Assembly (NCBI GenBank): GCA_964536285.1
Contig: CAZHXG010000002.1
Span: forward strand, 66,457-130,456
DNA: 64,000 nucleotides
Origin: an uncultured Bifidobacteriaceae bacterium
Lineage (GTDB): Bacteria; Verrucomicrobiota; Verrucomicrobiia; Limisphaerales; UBA11358
Direction: 5' to 3'
Shown: positions 3,862 to 21,440 of the stretch, piece after piece
Numbering within the stretch: position 1 is the stretch's first letter
Layout: every line of letters begins with the position of its first letter
Position numbers and translations under genes: made by a program
The notes under the pieces: generated by a model
What the model saw: only the letters and a program-made list of their open reading frames with translations
What the model was told of the DNA's origin: nothing
Database searches by the model: none

Positions 3862-4704
3862 TTATTTTTTTGCGATTAAAATTCTGGCGCGCTGACTGTA
3901 ATCTTCCTTCACCGCTTCGACAATCCACTTTTCATTTTGAAAAATTGTGCAAATGGCCTCGGCCTGACCGTCGCCAAATTCCAGCATGATTTTGCCGTCC
4001 GGTTTCAGAAACGCTTTCGCTTTCGCCGCCAGAATCCGATAAAAATCCAGACCGTCCGCGCCGCCGTCCAAAGCCGCGCGCGGATCAAAATCGCGGACTT
4101 CCGGCTGAAGCGTTTCAATTTCAGCCGACGGAATGTAGGGCGGATTGCTCATAATCAAATCGAATTTTGAATCGGCAGAAAGCGCAGCAAATCCATCACC
4201 TTGCAAAAATTCAATCCGTTCCGCGACTTTATTTTGCTCGGCATTTTGTTTCGCCAACGTGAGCGCGTCCGCCGAAACGTCAGTCGCGTTGATTTTTGCA
4301 TTTGGACATTTCGTCGCGAGCGCAATACTGATGCAGCCGGTTCCGGTTCCAAAATCCAAAGCGGCAGTTTTGTTTTCTCCCAAAAATTTCCAGCCTTCTT
4401 CGGCAAGCAATTCCGTTTCCGGTCGTGGGACGAGCGCATGACGGTTCACGGTGATTTCAAATCCGCAGAATGAAGTCGAGCCGACGATATGTTGCAACGG
4501 CTCGCGTTGTCCGCGGCGTTTGACGAGTTCGCGCAACGCATCCGTTTCCGACGGCGTGAGCACACGCTCGAAATTCAGATACAATTTCATGCGCGGCATT
4601 TTCAACAAATGCGCGAGGAGAAGTTCAACTTGCAGGCGCGGCGATTCGATACCTTTTTTGCCAAGAAAATCTGCACTCTTCTGAATCGCTTCAAGTACGG
4701 TCAC
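3862..4704 (-). CDS. prmC: Release-factor glutamine N5-methyltransferase
   Basis: 280 aa. SAM-binding LDFGTGTGCI and catalytic NPPY (MSNPPYIP). Confidence 0.9.
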   Translation of the reverse strand: MTVLEAIQKSADFLGKKGIESPRLQVELLLAHLLKMPRMKLYLNFERVLTPSETDALRELVKRRGQREPLQHIVGSTSFCGFEITVNRHALVPRPETELLAEEGWKFLGENKTAALDFGTGTGCISIALATKCPNAKINATDVSADALTLAKQNAEQNKVAERIEFLQGDGFAALSADSKFDLIMSNPPYIPSAEIETLQPEVRDFDPRAALDGGADGLDFYRILAAKAKAFLKPDGKIMLEFGDGQAEAICTIFQNEKWIVEAVKEDYSQRARILIAKK

Positions 4705-4733
4705 GCGAAGAATCTAAATCGGAATCGCCCGAT

Positions 4734-5246
4734 TCAAAACTTTTTTTGGCCGGATTCATTTTTATCGCGGCTGTGGATGAACAAGCCGGTTTGATAAACG
4801 AGGTAATAGCCGACGGTCAGCCCAAAAATGAAAAGTGTCAGCGGACTTTGAAACGGCATCGTTGGATTTTGCGCGGTTGCCACGTTGCCGGACGGGATAT
4901 ATTTGTAGGCGATGCGGCCGACGAACAAAACTGAAAGCACAACGCCGATGTGTGTATTAGGTTTGTAAAAATGGCCTTCATCGGTCGTGTCGAATCGCGT
5001 GAGGCGCAGTCCGACAAAACCAAGCGGCAGTCCGAGCAACAACCCGCAGCCAAATCCAAGCAGCAAATTTGTGTTTTGCAATGACGTGCCGACAATCACC
5101 ACGCTGACGACGGAAAGAATGACGATGGAAGTGATGGCGCGGCGCGGATGCAGTTTTTGTCTACCTATGTTGCGGCGCACACGGCGATAAATGCTCCAGA
5201 CGAAAACGCCGATTATCACGACGTAAATGAAATAAGACGACGACAT
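4734..5246 (-). CDS. Integral membrane protein, unknown function (170 aa)
   Basis: Four or five hydrophobic segments. Resembles DUF1453/CcdC-type small membrane proteins, but I cannot confirm the family. Confidence 0.6.
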   Translation of the reverse strand: MSSSYFIYVVIIGVFVWSIYRRVRRNIGRQKLHPRRAITSIVILSVVSVVIVGTSLQNTNLLLGFGCGLLLGLPLGFVGLRLTRFDTTDEGHFYKPNTHIGVVLSVLFVGRIAYKYIPSGNVATAQNPTMPFQSPLTLFIFGLTVGYYLVYQTGLFIHSRDKNESGQKKF

Positions 5247-5310
5247 AGTCGGAGGTTAAATTTTCAATTTCGCTTGTCGAGAGGAATCATTTTACATTCG
5301 TGAAACGAAA

Positions 5311-6174
5311 TTATTTTCCTTCGACGCCCTTGAGATAGGCGAAAATGAGTTCGGGCAAATCCTTGCTGTAACCGCCTTCGAGCAGACTGAAGAACGGAAT
5401 TTTCAATGCGCGAAGTTCCTGGCCGAGCCAGTAGAAATCCTCCGCGAGCAAAGTGCCGTCGCCCAGCGGGTCGTGCGCGTAAGCATCGAATCCGGCGGAC
5501 ACGGCGATCAAATCGGGACGGAAATTTTTCAGGTCTTCGAGAGCGCGGGCGAGCGTACCACGATACGTTTCGCGCGGCGTGGACGGCGCGACGGGATAAT
5601 TGAAACAATTTTTGCCGGCGTTCGTCGCGCCCGTGCCCGGATAACACGGATGTTGGTGAATGGAAAAAAATGCGACGCCGGGTTTGTTCAGCAGAATGTC
5701 TTCCGTACCGTTCCCGTGATGCACATCGAAATCAAAAACGGCGACGCGCTTTGAGCCAGTCGCAGCGGCTTCGAGAACGGCGATGGCGATGTTGTTCAAA
5801 TAGCAGAAGCCCATCGCGCTTTCGCGCGTGGCGTGATGGCCGGGCGGGCGCATGAGACTGAAAACATTTTCGCCGGTTCGCGCGATTTTCAAAGCGTCGA
5901 GCGCGGCGGCGGCGGATTCGCGGGCGAATCCGGAAATATTTTCGTAAGCGGGCGTGTCGGCGTCGAAGTCTTTCGGGATTTTCAGCCGCGCGAGCAGTTC
6001 GGGCGCGTGCGCGCGCAAAATCTGTTCGTCGGTCACTTTCGTCGGAGCAATCCATTCGATCGGCAGTTCGTTCTGATTTTTCAGAAGCTCGACGGTGGCC
6101 GTGATCCGCGCGGGACGTTCGGGATGCGCGTAACGCGAATAGCCGGTGCATTTTTCGTCGGTGACGATTTTCAC
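5311..6174 (-). CDS. Histone-deacetylase-family amidohydrolase (AcuC/acetylpolyamine amidohydrolase-like)
   Basis: RPPGHHA, DFDVHHGNGTEDI and GGY motifs of class I/II HDAC-like enzymes. Confidence 0.85.
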   Translation of the reverse strand: MKIVTDEKCTGYSRYAHPERPARITATVELLKNQNELPIEWIAPTKVTDEQILRAHAPELLARLKIPKDFDADTPAYENISGFARESAAAALDALKIARTGENVFSLMRPPGHHATRESAMGFCYLNNIAIAVLEAAATGSKRVAVFDFDVHHGNGTEDILLNKPGVAFFSIHQHPCYPGTGATNAGKNCFNYPVAPSTPRETYRGTLARALEDLKNFRPDLIAVSAGFDAYAHDPLGDGTLLAEDFYWLGQELRALKIPFFSLLEGGYSKDLPELIFAYLKGVEGK

Positions 6175-6762: not shown

Positions 6763-8760
6763 TCACTTGCCGCGCGAAGCGGCCAGCGGCATGGACGACT
6801 CCAGATGGATCACGCGCGAGTCGTCGCCGGAAGATTTGTTTTTCGTCTGCGAATCGAACTGGTTGCTCTCGCGGTAAAGCGTGATGGAGACGTGCTCGTT
6901 GCGCCGAATGCATTCCTTGATGGACTCGGCGTCCTTCTCGCAATAGAGCAAGGTCTTCCAGGAATAAATATGTTTCGGCTTGTGAAAATCGCTGTTGCCG
7001 AGAAACGGCAGGCGTTTCATGCCGACGCAATCGAAGATGTTGTGGCGGTTGGCGATTTCCCACGCGTCGATCAGCGGCGCGAATTTCTCGTGGTTCTCCC
7101 AAAGATACAACGTGTTCTTGCCCCACTCGCTTTTCATGATGTGCGGGTGCGACGCGACGGCGAGTCCGCCTTGCGCGTGGATGTGCGCGATGGTCTCCGG
7201 CAAATCAAGCGCAGACGAAATCGGATTTTTCAAATCGATGCCGAGCAGATGTGCCGAAGTTTTTTTTGTGTAGCCGTCTTTGTTGAACTCGATGCCGGTC
7301 ATCACGATCATGTTGTATTTTTTCCAGGCGCGACGGCGTTCGCGCGCGATGACTTCAAAATATTCCTCCAACTGGTCTTCGCTGACGGTCATGTTGCTCA
7401 AGCGCGCGAGTTTTCCGATCAAGCGGCGCGGATCGGCCAGATGGTCGGTGATGCAGATGCAGTCGAAGCCGAGCCGCCCGTAAAAATCCACAACCTCCGG
7501 CACGGAAAGTTTTCCGTCCGAATAACTCGTGTGGATGTGAAAATCACAGAGCAACATGCGCGCGGGACCATTGCCATTGACTGTCGAGACAACCGGCTTA
7601 AATGTTGAGACCGGCGACTCGAACAGTTTGACTTTCTTCCGCGTCGGATCGGTCTGTTCGCATTCCTCCAAAATCAACTCCGCCAATCGCAACGCGGCGT
7701 CCGGCTTGCTGATGCGCTGCAAATTTTTCCGCCATTCCTGCCACTGTTTCGCCTTGTGCGCGAAGGCTTCCTCGACCAGTTCCGGCACTTCGCGGTTTCG
7801 TTCCGCGATCGCGCCGAGTTTATATTCCGCGATGAGTTGCGCGTTGCCTTCCTCTTGTCCGGGAATGACCTGATTGACGATCATCGGGCAGCGCGCGGCG
7901 ATCGCTTCCTGCACGACCGCGCCGCCCGCCTTGCCGATGACGAGATGGTGGCTCAACATCAGTTGCGGCATCTGGTTCGTCCAGCCGAGCACGTGGACGC
8001 GGTCCTTGTGATCGCGCGTGCGTTCGATCAACTTGGATTTCAATTCCGCATCGCGCCCGACGGTGATGGTCAGTTGCGTGTCGGGAATTTCGAGCAGCCG
8101 GTCGATGACCTTGCCCGCCTTCTTTTTTCCGGTGTTGATGATGTAAAGAATTTTTCGCGCCTCGCCCGAAACCGGCACGCGCAACGGAATCACCGGTTCT
8201 TCCGTGAACAGATGGCTGACGGGAAAACCGAGCGCCTTGATTTTCGACGCGGGAATTTTCTGCGCGCGCAAAACTTCCGCCGTCGGTTCGTTGGGAACGC
8301 AAAAAATATCGCTCGTCGCACGATACCACGCCGAGTTCACGGTGATGGAATCGGTGACGATGGTGATGAAACGAAACGGCCGCTCGGCATAATCGCGGTA
8401 AAGTTCCTGGATGACGTGCGCGTAGACCGGGTAAGTGGAGACGACGCAGTCCGGCTGCGTCTCGTGCAAAATGTCGGCGAGCGAATTTTTCAGCTTCGTG
8501 AAATTGCCGAGCCGGCTCTCGACGAACTTGGAATTGTCCAGCAACGAGTAAATTCCGCCCCAAAACTGCGGGACGTATTTCACCATGTTCAGGTAGGCGC
8601 TCTTGGCGAGCGTGTTGAACGAGCCGTAGCTGCTCTCGAACAAATCCAGCACCTCGACTTTGACCTCGTCGGAAACGAGTTCGAGCGCGTCGCGCAAATT
8701 TCGCGCGGCGGCGTTGTGACCTTCGCCAAAGCCCGCAGTCAGTATGAGAACTTTTTTCAT
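6763..8760 (-). CDS. Fusion protein: N-terminal GT28 MGDG-synthase/UgtP-like diacylglycerol glycosyltransferase + C-terminal PHP phosphoesterase domain
   Basis: aa 1-~375: MKKVLILTAGFGEGHNAAARNL..., GKAGGAVVQEAIAARCPMIV (GT-B, MGDG_synth-like). aa ~402-630: CDFHIHTSYSDG...CITDHL...ASHPH (PHP metal-binding His/Asp motifs). One uninterrupted 665-aa ORF. Confidence 0.8.
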   Translation of the reverse strand: MKKVLILTAGFGEGHNAAARNLRDALELVSDEVKVEVLDLFESSYGSFNTLAKSAYLNMVKYVPQFWGGIYSLLDNSKFVESRLGNFTKLKNSLADILHETQPDCVVSTYPVYAHVIQELYRDYAERPFRFITIVTDSITVNSAWYRATSDIFCVPNEPTAEVLRAQKIPASKIKALGFPVSHLFTEEPVIPLRVPVSGEARKILYIINTGKKKAGKVIDRLLEIPDTQLTITVGRDAELKSKLIERTRDHKDRVHVLGWTNQMPQLMLSHHLVIGKAGGAVVQEAIAARCPMIVNQVIPGQEEGNAQLIAEYKLGAIAERNREVPELVEEAFAHKAKQWQEWRKNLQRISKPDAALRLAELILEECEQTDPTRKKVKLFESPVSTFKPVVSTVNGNGPARMLLCDFHIHTSYSDGKLSVPEVVDFYGRLGFDCICITDHLADPRRLIGKLARLSNMTVSEDQLEEYFEVIARERRRAWKKYNMIVMTGIEFNKDGYTKKTSAHLLGIDLKNPISSALDLPETIAHIHAQGGLAVASHPHIMKSEWGKNTLYLWENHEKFAPLIDAWEIANRHNIFDCVGMKRLPFLGNSDFHKPKHIYSWKTLLYCEKDAESIKECIRRNEHVSITLYRESNQFDSQTKNKSSGDDSRVIHLESSMPLAASRGK

Positions 8761-16620: not shown

Positions 16621-16695
16621 TGGTGCGCGCTGCAGGGTTTGAACCTGCGACCCCATCCGTGTGAAGGATGTGCTCTACCGCTGAGCTAAGCGCGC
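16621..16695 (-). tRNA. tRNA-Val (anticodon CAC)
   Basis: Folded by hand: acceptor GCGCGCT/AGCGCGC, D-arm GCTC-AGCGGTA-GAGC, anticodon stem CATCC/GGATG with loop TTCACAC, T-arm GCAGG-TTCAAAC-CCTGC, discriminator A, encoded CCA. Confidence 0.9.
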
Positions 16696-16836: not shown

Positions 16837-17346
16837 GTGCAGAAAACCGGATATTTCGGTCGGTTGTTTCGTCTGTTCGCCACGAAGAATGTTCTTCCAG
16901 TCATCGTCGCGCTTCTGGCCTTTGGCGCGATTCAAGTTGATTCAAAAGCACCCTCGTATCCATCGGCGGCGATTCGTCAAAAATCACCGCTGAAACAACC
17001 TGTCGCGGCAATTCATGTTTCCCCCACAGCCAATCTTGCTCCTCCATCTGCTGCATCCGCTGATTTCCTGCGCAAAGTCCAAAAAGAAATTTGGGTCGGT
17101 TTTAAAATGGAAGGTTCAAACAATTTTTTGCCCGGTGTGCGCCTTGAAAAAAGCCCCGGTCAAAATCCGGGCGCCCAGCTTGTGCTCGTTCACAAAAAAC
17201 TGGGCGCGACAGAATGTTCGGAGCGCTGGATGGATATTCAGGCCGGATACGGATCCGCTTGTTTTGACCACGCCGACCTGGAAAAAATCGACCCGAACTG
17301 GGTGGAACCCGGCTTGCTTTATCTCAAGGCCAGTTTCAGTTTTTGA
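16837..17346 (+). CDS. Hypothetical membrane-anchored/exported protein (169 aa)
   Basis: GTG start and one N-terminal hydrophobic segment ([14 protein letters not shown]). Its 3' end overlaps the convergent nadB by 11 nt. No motif recognised. Confidence 0.45.
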
Positions 17347-18940
17347 TTCTACGCACAACCGTGTCGTGTTGCGCCCATGCGGGGTCTGGATTCGGATAAT
17401 CCAGATTGTAATGCAGCCCCCGGCTTTCCGTCCGCATCAACGCGCACTTCACGATCAATTCCGCCACCGTCGCGATGTTGCGCAACTCCAGCAAATCGCC
17501 CGTCACGATGAAATTCCAGTAATATTCCTGAATTTCCTCCTGCAGATTGGCGATGCGTTTCTGCGCGCGCTGCAACCGCTTGTTCGTGCGCACGATACCG
17601 ACGTAATCCCACATCAACCGCCGGATTTCGTCCCAATTGTGCGAGACGACGACCAGCTCGTCCGCGTTCGTCGCGTTGCCCGATTGCCACAACGGAATTT
17701 TTGCGTCAATTTTTTGCAACGGACTTGAAAGAATTTTTTCCGCAGCACGATGCGCGCAAACGAGCGCTTCCAAAAGCGAATTGCTCGCCAGCCGGTTCGC
17801 GCCGTGCAATCCCGTGCAGGCCACTTCGCCAACGGCGTAAAGTCCGGAGATATCCGTCTCACCGTCCACGTTTGTCACCACACCACCTGCCTGATGATGC
17901 GCCGCCGGTACGACGGGGATCGGCTCCTTCGTGATGTCAATTCCGTAACGCAAACACGTCTGATAAATGTTTGGAAAACGTTCGCGGATGAATTCCGCCG
18001 GTTTGTGCGTGATATCGAGCAGCACGCAATCTGCGCCGCTCTTTTTCATCTCGCTGTCAATCGCCCGCGCCACGATGTCGCGCGGTGCGAGCGATTTCAA
18101 TGGATGAACGCCGTCCATGAATTCCTTGCCGTCGAGCGTTTTCAAAATTCCGCCTTCGCCGCGAACGGCTTCGGAAATCAAAAACGATTTCGCCTTCGGA
18201 TGATACAGGCACGTCGGATGAAACTGGATGAACTCCATGTTCGCGATGCTCGCGCCCGCGCGATACGCCATCGCCACGCCGTCGCCGGTCGCGATGTCGG
18301 GATTCGTCGTGTAAAGATAAACTTTGCCGCAGCCACCCGTCGCCAGCAGCGTCACCGGTGCGGAAAACGTTTCAACGCGATTTGATTTCTTGTCAAAAAC
18401 GTAGGCGCCCAGGCAGCGGTTGCCGTCTTTCAATCCGATTTTTTTGGTGGTGATCAAATCAATCGCCAGATGATTTTCGAAAATGGAAATGTTCGCCTGC
18501 TTGGAAATCGCGTTGAGCAGCGCGGTTTCGATTTCGTGGCCGGTCACGTCCTTCGCGTGGAGAATCCGGCGTTTGGAATGTCCGCCTTCGCGTCCCAAAT
18601 CCAGTTCATGCGCGCCGTGCGACGCCGGAATCTCGCGCTCGGAAAATTTCATGCCGAGTTCGATCAACTCTTGAATCCGCGCCGGGCCTTCTTCGACAAT
18701 CGTGCGGACGACATTTTCTTTGCACAAACCCGCGCCCGCTTCGAGCGTGTCGCGCACATGCAGCTCGAACGAATCCTCCTTGCTCGTCACCGACGCGATG
18801 CCGCCCTGCGCGTAATTCGTGTTCGACTCCGCGCGGTCTTTTTTCGTGACGATGGCCACGCGCCCGCGCGGCGCGACCTTCAGCGCGAACGTCAGTCCCG
18901 CGATGCCGCTGCCGAGGACGAGATAATCAAATTGTTTCAT
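17336..18940 (-). CDS. nadB: L-aspartate oxidase
   Basis: FAD-binding [12 protein letters not shown]. Full-length NadB/succinate-dehydrogenase-flavoprotein-like pattern (RGEGG, HYxMGG-like HHQAGG). Start trimmed to MKQFDYL (ATG 18940). Confidence 0.93.
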
Positions 18941-19562
18941 TTTCTGAATCAAAAGCGTCTTCCCAATCGTGAATAATTCTCCCGCCAAACATTGACATTA
19001 CAAGATTGCCTTTTTCTTCGCCAAGTGAACGACTCCAGTCGGAAATGTTCAGTTCAGATAAATGTTTGAACAATGGCGGGAATGTATTCAATACATCAAT
19101 ATATTTTGCAGCATCCAATTTATCCCAAAGAAGCCTAACAGAATTCAGATCAGAAAGTTCTCGATGTGCGCCAATCTGATTTCGAATTTCTCGAAGTTCT
19201 TTTTCAACTAGCTCTAGCTCGGACCAAAGCTCTTTGAACAATCGCTTCGCTTCAAGAAATTCTTTTTTAGTAATGTAGCGCCAGGGAGGTGACTTTCCTT
19301 TTACTAAACGCTCTGATTTCATTACGACACCTTGCATTTCTTTGAGAGAATCCACCAATGAAACAAATTCGATTATAATGTGTTTAAACAACAACTTGTC
19401 CAAGACTTCGTTTTCAGATTTGTGCTTTAACCGAAGTCCATTCAGATTTTGTATGTCATTCCAAATATGGCTCAAATGGACAAGTATCTCGGCTGCACGA
19501 TTGCATGGATACCAAGAATGTATCTCTTCGTTGTAAACGGGAATGTAAGCGTCACCTTTCAC
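18927..19562 (-). CDS. AT-rich orphan protein (211 aa) with an R-x5-H motif; candidate HEPN-like domain
   Basis: GTG start overlaps the panC stop (GTGA), and the 3' end overlaps the nadB start by 14 nt. The sequence looks predominantly alpha-helical. [12 protein letters not shown] (nt 19164..19184 encode RNQIGAH). GC clearly lower than the flanks. Confidence 0.55.
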
Positions 19563-20422
19563 AATTTTGCATTATCAATCAATCGCGTCTTGCCGATGAA
19601 AACGGCCAGCGCCATTTGTGTGCCGGATTTTATAGTTGAAACTGGCGACAATGTTTCCGGCTCAAAAAATTCGACGTAATCCAATTTTGTGTCCTGCTCG
19701 CTTTCAATAAGTTTTTTCAAGTCCGCTTTCAATTTTGCCGCTGAAATTGATTTTGATTTTTTCACGGCGGCTTTCGTGTTTTGAATCGCGCGCCAAAGAG
19801 TTGTCGCCTGCCGTCGCAAATCGCCAGCGAGATATTTGTTGCGCGAACTCATCGCCAGACCATCGCGTTCGCGCAACGTCGGCGCGACAATAATTTTCAA
19901 TGGAAAATTCAAATCGCTCACCATGTGTTTGATGACAGCTGCCTGTTGAAAATCCTTTTGGCCGAACACCGCCATGTCCGGCAAAACAATGTTGAACAAT
20001 TTAGCGACGACGGTCGTCACGCCGCGAAAATGCGTTGGTCGCGATGCGCCTTCCATCGTCTGTGATAATTTTTCTTCGACGACGTAAGTGCTGAATCTAT
20101 TTTCAGATTTGTTCGGATACATTTCCGAATCGCTCGGCGTGAAAACAACATCCGTGTTCAATTCGCGCAGCAATTTCAAGTCACGTTTCAAGTCGCGCGG
20201 ATATTTTGAAAGGTCTTCCGTCGGCGCGAACTGCGTCGGGTTCACATAAATGCTTACAACGACTTTGCCGTTTTTGCCGACGGCTTGCCGCGCGCGTTTC
20301 ACGAGGCTCAAATGGCCGGTGTGCAAATAACCCATCGTCGGCACGAAGCCGATGCGCGTGCCGGCGCGCTGCCATTTTTTGGCGAGCCGTTGCATCGCGG
20401 CGACGGATTTGACGATTTGCAT
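19559..20422 (-). CDS. panC: Pantoate--beta-alanine ligase
   Basis: 287 aa. PTMGYLHTGHLSLV (HxGH) and full-length PanC pattern. Confidence 0.95.
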   Translation of the reverse strand: MQIVKSVAAMQRLAKKWQRAGTRIGFVPTMGYLHTGHLSLVKRARQAVGKNGKVVVSIYVNPTQFAPTEDLSKYPRDLKRDLKLLRELNTDVVFTPSDSEMYPNKSENRFSTYVVEEKLSQTMEGASRPTHFRGVTTVVAKLFNIVLPDMAVFGQKDFQQAAVIKHMVSDLNFPLKIIVAPTLRERDGLAMSSRNKYLAGDLRRQATTLWRAIQNTKAAVKKSKSISAAKLKADLKKLIESEQDTKLDYVEFFEPETLSPVSTIKSGTQMALAVFIGKTRLIDNAKL

Positions 20423-20447: not shown

Positions 20448-20483
20448 CAAACAAACAAGCCGCGCGGATTGCTCCACGCGGCT
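20448..20483 (-). terminator. Putative rho-independent terminator downstream of the glutaredoxin-like gene
   Basis: On the minus strand: AGCCGCG-(12-nt loop)-CGCGGCT followed by TGTTTGTTTGG. Confidence 0.45.
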
Positions 20484-20501
20484 CGTGCGATTCAGAAATT
20501 T

Positions 20502-20940: not shown

Positions 20941-21195
20941 TCAAGACAGTAACTGGTCATACTCTGAATGATGGCCTATCCAAAACCAGTTCAAACCTTC
21001 CGCACGGTCTTTGGCAACAGCGCGATAATGAATGCCCACGCGCGCCGTCCAGAACTTGCCCGCCTTTTTCAATCGCAATGAAGGATGACGGGGATTTTGT
21101 TTGAGTAACTCGAAATCTTTTTCCGCGAGCCGCTGGATTTCTTCAGGCAAGCGGTTGAAGTGCTGCCAGAACTCCGGCGTGGTGAAGTGCGTCAT
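20941..21195 (-). CDS. RelE/ParE-superfamily-like toxin (84 aa)
   Basis: MTHFTTPEFWQHFNRLPEEIQRLAEKDFELLKQNPRHPSLRLKK...WTARVGIHYRAVA, typical of small RelE/ParE-like toxins. ATGA overlap with the upstream antitoxin. Confidence 0.65.
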   Translation of the reverse strand: MTHFTTPEFWQHFNRLPEEIQRLAEKDFELLKQNPRHPSLRLKKAGKFWTARVGIHYRAVAKDRAEGLNWFWIGHHSEYDQLLS

Positions 21196-21392
21196 AGCGG
21201 ACGGCACTTGCCCTGCTCAAACGCGCGGTCGGCGGCTTCACCCAGCTTGTCGAGTTTGCCAGACTGCACGTCGGCGGCGAACCGTTTTTCCCATTTCTCC
21301 GCCAGATAATCCTCGAACCAGCCGGACAATTGCCCGAGCGAATGATCATCCAATTGTCCAATCGCCGCTTCAATGTCTTGCACTGTGCTCAT
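21192..21392 (-). CDS. Putative antitoxin (66 aa)
   Basis: Small acidic helical protein (MSTVQDIEAAIGQLDDHSLGQLSGWFEDYLAEKWEK...) translationally coupled to the toxin. Start trimmed to the ATG at 21392. Confidence 0.55.
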   Translation of the reverse strand: MSTVQDIEAAIGQLDDHSLGQLSGWFEDYLAEKWEKRFAADVQSGKLDKLGEAADRAFEQGKCRPL

Positions 21393-21440
21393 ACTCGCTA
21401 AATTAAACGAGGACGGTTGGTTTGGCAAAGCGCAAAAATA

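Follow-up and report, generated by a model that had tools for sequence, protein, structure and literature searches.

HEPN ribonucleases (RNases) share a general mechanism that leaves 2',3'-cyclic phosphate ends (PMC3710099). Their fold is an up-down four-helix bundle in which an insert separates helices 2 and 3 and helix 4 is often kinked, and their motif has the form Rx4-6H, with a polar Asn, Asp, or His directly after the Arg; helix 2 typically also carries a conserved acidic residue, frequently in the form Ex3[KR] (PMC3710099). AbiU2 of the Lactococcus lactis AbiU system is classified as HEPN (HEPN_AbiU2, PF18734), AbiU2-type genes are associated with restriction-modification operons, and an "Integron cassette HEPN" family has been described as well (PMC3710099). 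The Gifsy-1 prophage encodes HepS, a solo HEPN protein that acts in abortive infection as an anticodon nuclease; phage tail-tip proteins activate it, and it cleaves the anticodon loops of tRNAs (PMC13043305). A single-gene integron cassette of Vibrio mimicus with an AbiU2 HEPN domain has been reported to give resistance to T4 and T7 (bioRxiv 10.64898/2026.03.17.712381). Here we describe a gene that may be a further member of this group. It lies between panC and nadB in a 64,000-nucleotide stretch (positions 66,457 to 130,456) of contig CAZHXG010000002.1, hereafter the window, and encodes 211 amino acids; we call it gene X. We favor, with moderate confidence, the reading that X encodes a stand-alone HEPN RNase, a one-gene defense or toxin module carried as a rare accessory gene.

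The open reading frame (ORF) of X, taken from the ORF list and its translation, spans 18927-19562 on the minus strand, from a GTG start to a TGA stop. Its product belongs to a real but small and previously unnamed family: 20 clusters, none with a Pfam domain or an informative name, were found among 5.8 billion clustered proteins, and 69 among 1.84 billion representatives searched exhaustively with HMMER. Conservation was read from an alignment of 20 close members and from a broader one of 50 members (A2) reaching down to 22% identity. Across these 50 proteins the only invariant columns are R127 and H133, the two ends of the sequence R127-N-Q-I-G-A-H133, a candidate HEPN Rx5H catalytic motif whose codons, read from the sequence, lie at 19164-19184 on the minus strand (R127 at 19184-19182 and H133 at 19166-19164). 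The motif and its two residues had been pointed out in an earlier note on this DNA, and the alignment bears them out. Position 128 is Asn in the 50 members, with Asp in a few, while A132 and R134 are nearly invariant; P8, P19, N21, D36, L57, K60, E65, A132, R134, and W176 are conserved in at least 90%. Invariant in the 20 close members are R127, N128, I130, G131, A132, and R134. The sequence R127-N128-Q-I-G-A-H133 thus has the Rx4-6H spacing, the polar residue after the Arg, and the family-wide conservation expected of a HEPN motif. The near-invariant acidic residue E65 (codon 19368-19370, minus strand; at least 90% conserved in A2) falls in a helix predicted at residues 52 to 82, helix 2; its context, E-F-V-S-L, has no Lys or Arg at +4, unlike the frequent Ex3[KR] form.

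An AlphaFold (AF2) model built on the 50-sequence alignment places the Arg/His motif where a HEPN enzyme would have it. This model has a predicted local distance difference test (pLDDT) score of 91 and a predicted template modeling score of 0.85; an earlier model, built from the 20-sequence alignment, was mediocre (pLDDT 76). The better model has helices at residues 22 to 47 and 52 to 82, an insert at 83 to 98, a long third helix at 99 to 131, a loop at 132 to 138, and a broken fourth helix (139 to 147, 151 to 158, and 161 to 170). This predicted structure has the HEPN topology, that of a four-helix bundle whose second and third helices are separated by an insert. R127 lies at the end of helix 3, N128 follows the Arg, and H133 is at the start of the loop, so that in the model the Arg/His motif appears to sit at the HEPN motif position (PMC3710099). 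E65 lies in helix 2. The protein had been described as all-helical; it is largely so, but the model also has a beta-hairpin at the C terminus (residues 176 to 192) and short strands at the N terminus.

Profile searches point in the same direction. The sole Pfam match of X is HEPN_AbiU2 (PF18734), with an E value of 1.6e-4 and 21.7 bits, in which residues 99 to 169 align colinearly with positions 98 to 169 of the 193-position profile. The same family is matched by 15 of the 50 relatives at E values of 0.01 or below (the best being 6.2e-6), and no other Pfam family recurs. The PADLOC model CARF_HEPN is also matched, weakly, by 2 of the 50 (7.5e-5). Given the motif, its place in the predicted fold, and these matches, X is very probably a member of the HEPN superfamily.

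The genomic surroundings of distant relatives, which share 26 to 45% identity with X, are those of a conflict module that is mobile and consists of one gene. On two unrelated contigs (L078 and L085/86), the relative lies directly 3' of a Type IIG restriction-methylase gene, recognized by PADLOC with E values of 7e-164 and 4e-245. Elsewhere it has a TIR-domain gene on one side and a NACHT-HEAT-DUF4365 gene on the other (L088), follows an HNH endonuclease gene with Fic and PIN genes nearby (L091), or adjoins genes for RadC, an N6/N4 methylase, and a ResIII helicase (L054). These contexts match the described association of AbiU2-type genes with restriction-modification operons (PMC3710099). At locus L038, the relative is found 205 nucleotides downstream of a minimal nucleotidyltransferase gene (NTP_transf_2). 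X itself has no adjacent gene of this type, unlike the HEPN-MNT (HepT/MntA) pairs, and L038 is the only distant relative that has one. On the Desulfonema magnum chromosome (L040:5186-7071), the tol-pal operon has a 177-residue relative between its tolQ and tolR genes, on their strand; the GC content of this relative is 0.34 in a locus of 0.45. Since relatives reside in such unrelated contexts, we rejected a functional link of X to NAD metabolism. Finally, a 44%-identical relative in a Chthoniobacterales metagenome-assembled genome (MAG) carries a frameshift near residue 110 that splits it (L037:5974-6596); it has a host-like GC content of 0.53 to 0.56, is present in none of 12 relatives of that genome, and is probably a decaying copy.

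One further context recalls the integron-cassette HEPNs. In an Acidihalobacter MAG (L039:4054-9564), a 31%-identical relative lies in an array of small ORFs on one strand, divergent from a tyrosine recombinase gene, and attC-like palindromes flank it (GTTCAAC...GTTGAAC after the gene and a GTTAAGT core before it). The array looks integron-like, which is suggestive for this copy only, and the likeness to the described cassettes is one of context. The X gene of the window differs from integron cassettes in that it overlaps both of its neighbors, leaving no room for an attC site, and has no integrase nearby. Another cassette ORF of the L039 array (7268-7702, 144 residues) carries LRVLRNDIVHRG, a second HEPN-type motif, and has no Pfam match.

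Several results weigh against a HEPN defense or toxin enzyme. The 21.7 bits of the Pfam match fall short of the HEPN_AbiU2 gathering cutoff of 26.8, and X as a query is not recognized by PADLOC (PADLOC-DB 2.0), PHROGs, or NCBIfam. The profile of the X family misses the bona fide AbiU2 genes in 8 genomes that bear them, and a comparison with 7 AbiU2 sequences by hhalign aligns only 17 columns around the motif, at a probability of 1.4%. A close homolog, P0018, has Tyr at position 133, where His is otherwise invariant in the 20 close members. Foldseek searches with both models return no match in the PDB at an E value below 0.001 but only generic four-helix bundles; the HEPN toxin 7ae6 appears at rank 27 (E value, 0.41) and 1jog with an E value of 0.84, each with the weaker model only. 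Against viral structures, Foldseek gives no significant match and generic four-helix bundles only, and a scan of viral contigs yields no relative of X. A toxic RNase would also have to be tolerated by the cell without an antitoxin. The family profile compared with PDB sequences gives chance matches to coiled or helical proteins only and no solved relative.

The structure prediction that the earlier note had called for thus gave a four-helix HEPN-like topology but no significant structural match to a HEPN, and the profile search for AbiU2-like HEPNs gave HEPN_AbiU2 as the sole Pfam match but below its cutoff and without reciprocal detection. The HEPN-type single-gene interpretation proposed there is partly sustained, by the motif, its position in the fold, the Pfam match, the lack of an adjacent partner gene, and the contexts of relatives; neither membership in AbiU2 nor a Foldseek match can be counted in its favor. 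Because the Pfam match is subthreshold and no Foldseek match is significant, we file X as the founder of a separate HEPN-like family, distantly AbiU2-like, rather than as a member of PF18734. With AbiU2 it shares the R-x5-H spacing and the polar residue after the Arg (RNxIGAH in the X family and R[HN]KxLAH in AbiU2), a length of about 200 residues without other domains, and the association with restriction-modification genes. In contrast to AbiU2, the X family has a conserved N-terminal block of its own (P8, W17, P19, N21, and D36) and a C-terminal beta-hairpin with W176, and it is separate and very small, without reciprocal detection. In kind, the protein fits the known solo HEPN conflict proteins, with a defense or toxin role that is probable by analogy.

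We then asked how X is distributed. In the genus and the order of the window genome (G000), nadB commonly comes directly after panC, frequently with a 1-nucleotide spacer. Among 163 species representatives of the genus only 2 carry X, and among 401 genomes sampled from the order it is present in G000 alone; metagenome contigs supply about a dozen further loci. Every homolog with at least 54% identity is located in a panC-X-nadB arrangement, and orthologs of 54 to 86% identity occupy the same junction, with the same overlaps, in other lineages of the genus. Orthologs at this position are therefore rare and, as described below, AT-rich everywhere, instead of being ubiquitous with native GC content, the pattern that the earlier note had regarded as contrary to its proposal. 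One of the carriers, a MAG of the same genus (L036, CAYYWB010000170.1), is labeled "uncultured Bifidobacteriaceae bacterium" in its record; the label looks doubtful because the nearest relative of X outside the genus is in Chthoniobacterales.

Carriers of X are scattered on the panC tree, where well-supported branches force at least five gains or losses, and the nearest panC relatives of G000 (86 to 89% identity) lack the gene. X is usually more diverged than panC (56 to 64% versus 71 to 77% identity), yet between L001 and L036 it is 80% identical where panC is 71% identical, an incongruence between the two genes. Where carriers have similar X genes, their flanks show no shared recombination tract. 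Homologous recombination within the conserved flanks has probably exchanged the junction alleles, the scenario that we favor; ancient presence with repeated loss is the less favored alternative.

The composition of X sets it apart from its flanks. Its GC content is 0.384, with 0.355 at third codon positions (GC3), compared with 0.49 and 0.585 in panC and 0.565 and 0.71 in nadB. In 200-nucleotide sliding windows, GC content ranges from 0.365 to 0.41 in X and from 0.55 to 0.64 in nadB. The contrast noted earlier is therefore real, although the value of about 70% GC given then for nadB was too high, the largest 200-nucleotide window reaching 0.64. As a baseline we used 1791 nonoverlapping ORFs of at least 150 codons from the 2.38-Mb assembly (GC content, 0.543; median GC3, 0.656); 0.9% of them have a GC3 of 0.36 or less and 0.6% a GC content of 0.39 or less, which puts X in the lowest 1% or so. 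The same offset is found in all carriers, with a GC content of 0.39 to 0.42 and a GC3 of 0.32 to 0.38 in X against 0.55 to 0.62 and 0.65 to 0.82 in the flanks, and the AT content of distant relatives is mostly offset from their surroundings too.

This composition does not make X a newcomer. Among six orthologs, the ratio of nonsynonymous to synonymous substitution rates (dN/dS) is 0.05 to 0.12, with saturated dS in most pairs. These values mark X as a functional protein-coding gene that is under strong purifying selection and has long been in the gene pool. Since it is AT-rich in every carrier despite saturated dS, its AT-richness is not a sign of recent arrival; it is an equilibrium, a persistent state rather than an unameliorated relic. 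Recent acquisition by the window genome is ruled out by the saturated dS and the conserved synteny, and X has long resided at this junction, which is polymorphic. Of the suggestion that X is a laterally acquired module, what holds is that it is a rare accessory gene; a recent import it is not, given orthologs 54 to 86% identical at the same junction. As for the cause of the AT-richness, one possibility is that selection favors poorly translated codons because the gene is toxic, and another is AT-biased mutation without the GC-biased gene conversion seen in frequently recombining core genes.

The gene is fitted tightly between its neighbors. Upstream, panC (pantoate-beta-alanine ligase; Pfam Pantoate_ligase on orthologous genes) spans 19559-20422 on the minus strand and is 57 to 89% identical in 36 of 40 relatives. 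Downstream, nadB (L-aspartate oxidase; FAD_binding_2 and Succ_DH_flav_C on orthologs) spans 17336-18940 on the minus strand; its ORF is listed from a TTG at 18988, but the conserved MKQFDY start corresponds to the ATG at 18940, which we take as the true start. The GTG of X (19562-19560) overlaps the panC TGA (19561-19559), so that the minus strand reads GTGA at 19559-19562, and the 3' end of X (ENETI followed by the stop) overlaps the nadB start (MKQF) by 14 nucleotides at 18927-18940 on the minus strand; both overlaps were read from the sequence. The extent of the ORF and the two overlaps had been given correctly in the earlier note. An ATGA or GTGA junction of X with panC is present in five of the six orthologous loci; in the sixth, L055, the ATG abuts the panC TAA. 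The sequence GAAAATGAAACAATTTGA, which covers both the stop of X and the start of nadB, is conserved in orthologous loci; in L004, X stops earlier, with a TAA just before the nadB ATG.

A consensus scan of the panC-X-nadB minus strand shows no terminator-like site between the genes. It places terminator-like hairpins upstream of panC (20455-20486, minus strand), a probable boundary of the transcription unit, and directly 3' of nadB (17293-17312, minus strand). One promoter-like site was found inside X, which is below the shuffled expectation for the scanned region. With no internal terminator and with both overlaps, the layout fits a single transcription unit that would be translationally coupled on both sides. 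No antitoxin-like ORF is adjacent, as had been observed before: X overlaps panC and nadB, and a hidden antitoxin in its antisense strand or another frame was rejected, since no such ORF is conserved among the six orthologs. We also rejected as a chance hit an Rfam RT-2 match inside X (19166-19339, minus strand; 33.1 bits against a cutoff of 40), because it is not found in five orthologs and contains many noncanonical pairs. Beyond the unit, a ParE-like toxin gene (Pfam ParE_like; E value, 1.1e-5) with a small overlapping upstream ORF lies at 20941-21428 on the minus strand, a toxin-antitoxin pair 1.4 kb upstream of panC, between a glutaredoxin-like gene and tgt. A tRNA gene (Rfam, 69.4 bits) is located at 16624-16695 on the minus strand, downstream of the nadB unit.

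In the genus, X is one of several alternative cargo alleles at the panC-nadB junction. In G012 and G023, an 84-nucleotide, AT-rich, near-perfect palindrome replaces X (L007:2365-2448 and L008:2365-2447). The spacer of these closest relatives is an unrelated palindromic repeat, which rules out a relic of X; arms or partial copies of it recur in three genomes of the genus, and it looks like a low-copy element of the repetitive extragenic palindrome (REP) or miniature inverted-repeat transposable element (MITE) type. Partial copies are present in G000 itself (C7:2662-2689 and C10:44606-44668). Other genomes have at this position a 148-residue membrane ORF (G014), a 163-residue ORF (G003), a VapC-VapB pair on the opposite strand (G011), a 1050-residue leucine-rich-repeat protein (G001), a 683-residue protein (G008), or a 728-residue AAA_21/AAA_15 ATPase (G019; L060:2417-4603). 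The last has PtuA-, AriA-, Old-, and GajA-like PADLOC matches and a GC content of 0.44, compared with 0.52 to 0.55 in its flanks. At L058:1323-2141, the order is panC, X, a copy of about 90 nucleotides of the nadB 5' end, VapC, VapB, and nadB; the VapCB genes are a toxin-antitoxin cassette bracketed by duplicated nadB 5' termini. At another locus (L059, G011:C4:1247000-1256500), panC and a VapBC pair are followed by the opening 25 codons of nadB, which run in frame into an unrelated 501-residue ORF (4511-6016); no full nadB is present within 5.9 kb. The junction resembles recombination-driven cargo hotspots (minimal mobile elements and islets of defense or toxin-antitoxin genes) in that alternative cargo occupies one core-gene junction, carriers are scattered on the flank tree, and a duplicated flank terminus brackets the neighboring cassette. 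It differs from them in that X is spliced in seamlessly by overlaps rather than placed in an intergenic spacer, and in that no recombination tract is visible.

How might a lone HEPN protein work from this position? X would be a metal-independent RNase with its active site at the end of helix 3, made up of R127 and H133 with help from N128 and probably also from E65. By analogy with characterized HEPN RNases, the 2'-OH would be activated by H133, R127 would serve to stabilize the transition state or to bind the backbone, and the cleavage products would carry 2',3'-cyclic phosphate ends. The protein would be made at a low constitutive level, with no promoter of its own, with translational coupling to panC and nadB, and from AT-rich codons that are rare in the genome. 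Since there is no partner gene, its control would have to be intrinsic, through low dosage and a trigger: like other solo HEPN proteins, X would stay inert until a signal such as phage infection releases RNA cleavage, leading to growth arrest or abortive infection. The beta element formed by the N-terminal strands and the C-terminal hairpin (P8, W17, P19, N21, and W176) may be a regulatory or sensing surface. HepS is the best experimental model for a lone HEPN that both senses infection and cleaves RNA. Like X, it is a single HEPN-domain protein, and it works without a partner; X differs from it in being chromosomal and operon-embedded rather than prophage-borne, and has no sequence or structural match to solved HEPNs. 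A bolder version of this mechanism, which we think rather unlikely, would make the X family a new kind of autonomous HEPN immune effector that splices into essential operons without an antitoxin, as in panC-X-nadB here and tolQ-X-tolR in Desulfonema. Coupling and selected rare AT-rich codons would then set its dosage, and the beta element would be a new phage-sensing module; the basis for a selection-maintained AT-rich coding sequence is the GC3 of 0.32 to 0.38 that persists despite saturated dS.

Other explanations of X must be weighed against a stand-alone defense or toxin RNase. One is that X is a selfish addiction-type toxin without a defense role, kept by wedging itself into an essential operon, where most deletions would disturb nadB expression, and curbed by low expression or by an unrecognized antitoxin, either an RNA or a trans-acting protein such as a minimal nucleotidyltransferase. 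The conservation of both overlaps across carriers would suit such a gene, as would the relative similarly wedged between tolQ and tolR and the abundance of toxin-antitoxin cassettes in the window genome and at the junction. The minimal nucleotidyltransferase is the classic type of HEPN antitoxin, and one relative does lie 205 nucleotides downstream of such a gene; however, that neighbor is found in only one of about a dozen contexts, no antisense or overlapping ORF is conserved, and most distant contexts are defense islands rather than stand-alone toxin-antitoxin loci. Moreover, X is absent from 161 of the 163 species and empty junctions with a 1-nucleotide gap are common, so that its loss or replacement is evidently easy. 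We consider this explanation improbable. We give a similarly small chance to a nontoxic accessory protein that processes or binds RNA and takes no part in conflict; its role would be specific to the lineage, for example in RNA turnover linked to stress or in regulation tied to the operon. Strong purifying selection, long residence at one locus, the cotranscription with housekeeping genes that the layout suggests, and the lack of both a partner and evidence of toxicity would all agree with such a role. Yet the distribution is very patchy, relatives in unrelated operons, defense islands, and an integron-like array ill fit a function tied to panC and nadB, and the composition is persistently foreign in every host.

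It is also conceivable, though very unlikely in our judgment, that X is no HEPN enzyme but another helical-bundle protein, for example a ligand- or protein-binding module, whose Arg and His are noncatalytic or serve a different function. Four-helix bundles are common folds, X has no significant structural match to any solved HEPN, and its Pfam match is below threshold with no reciprocal profile match. Against this stand the exact HEPN form of the motif (R, a polar N, four residues, and H), its exact HEPN position in the predicted fold, and the fact that its Arg and His are the sole invariant residues of the family. In addition, Pfam AbiU2 and PADLOC CARF_HEPN are two independent HEPN models and the only families that members match repeatedly. 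A stand-alone HEPN RNase serving in defense or as a toxin thus remains the reading that we prefer.

For the genus, a tight junction between two housekeeping genes can serve as a cargo slot, here in an uncultured lineage. X is also a warning against taking AT-richness as proof of recent transfer, as it is an accessory gene that has kept a foreign composition over long times. Solo HEPNs have only recently been shown to be complete one-gene immune systems, namely, HepS and the integron cassette with the AbiU2 domain. The X family, unannotated and without a solved relative, is small and has a clean catalytic signature and a confident model, which make it a tractable candidate for a one-gene defense.

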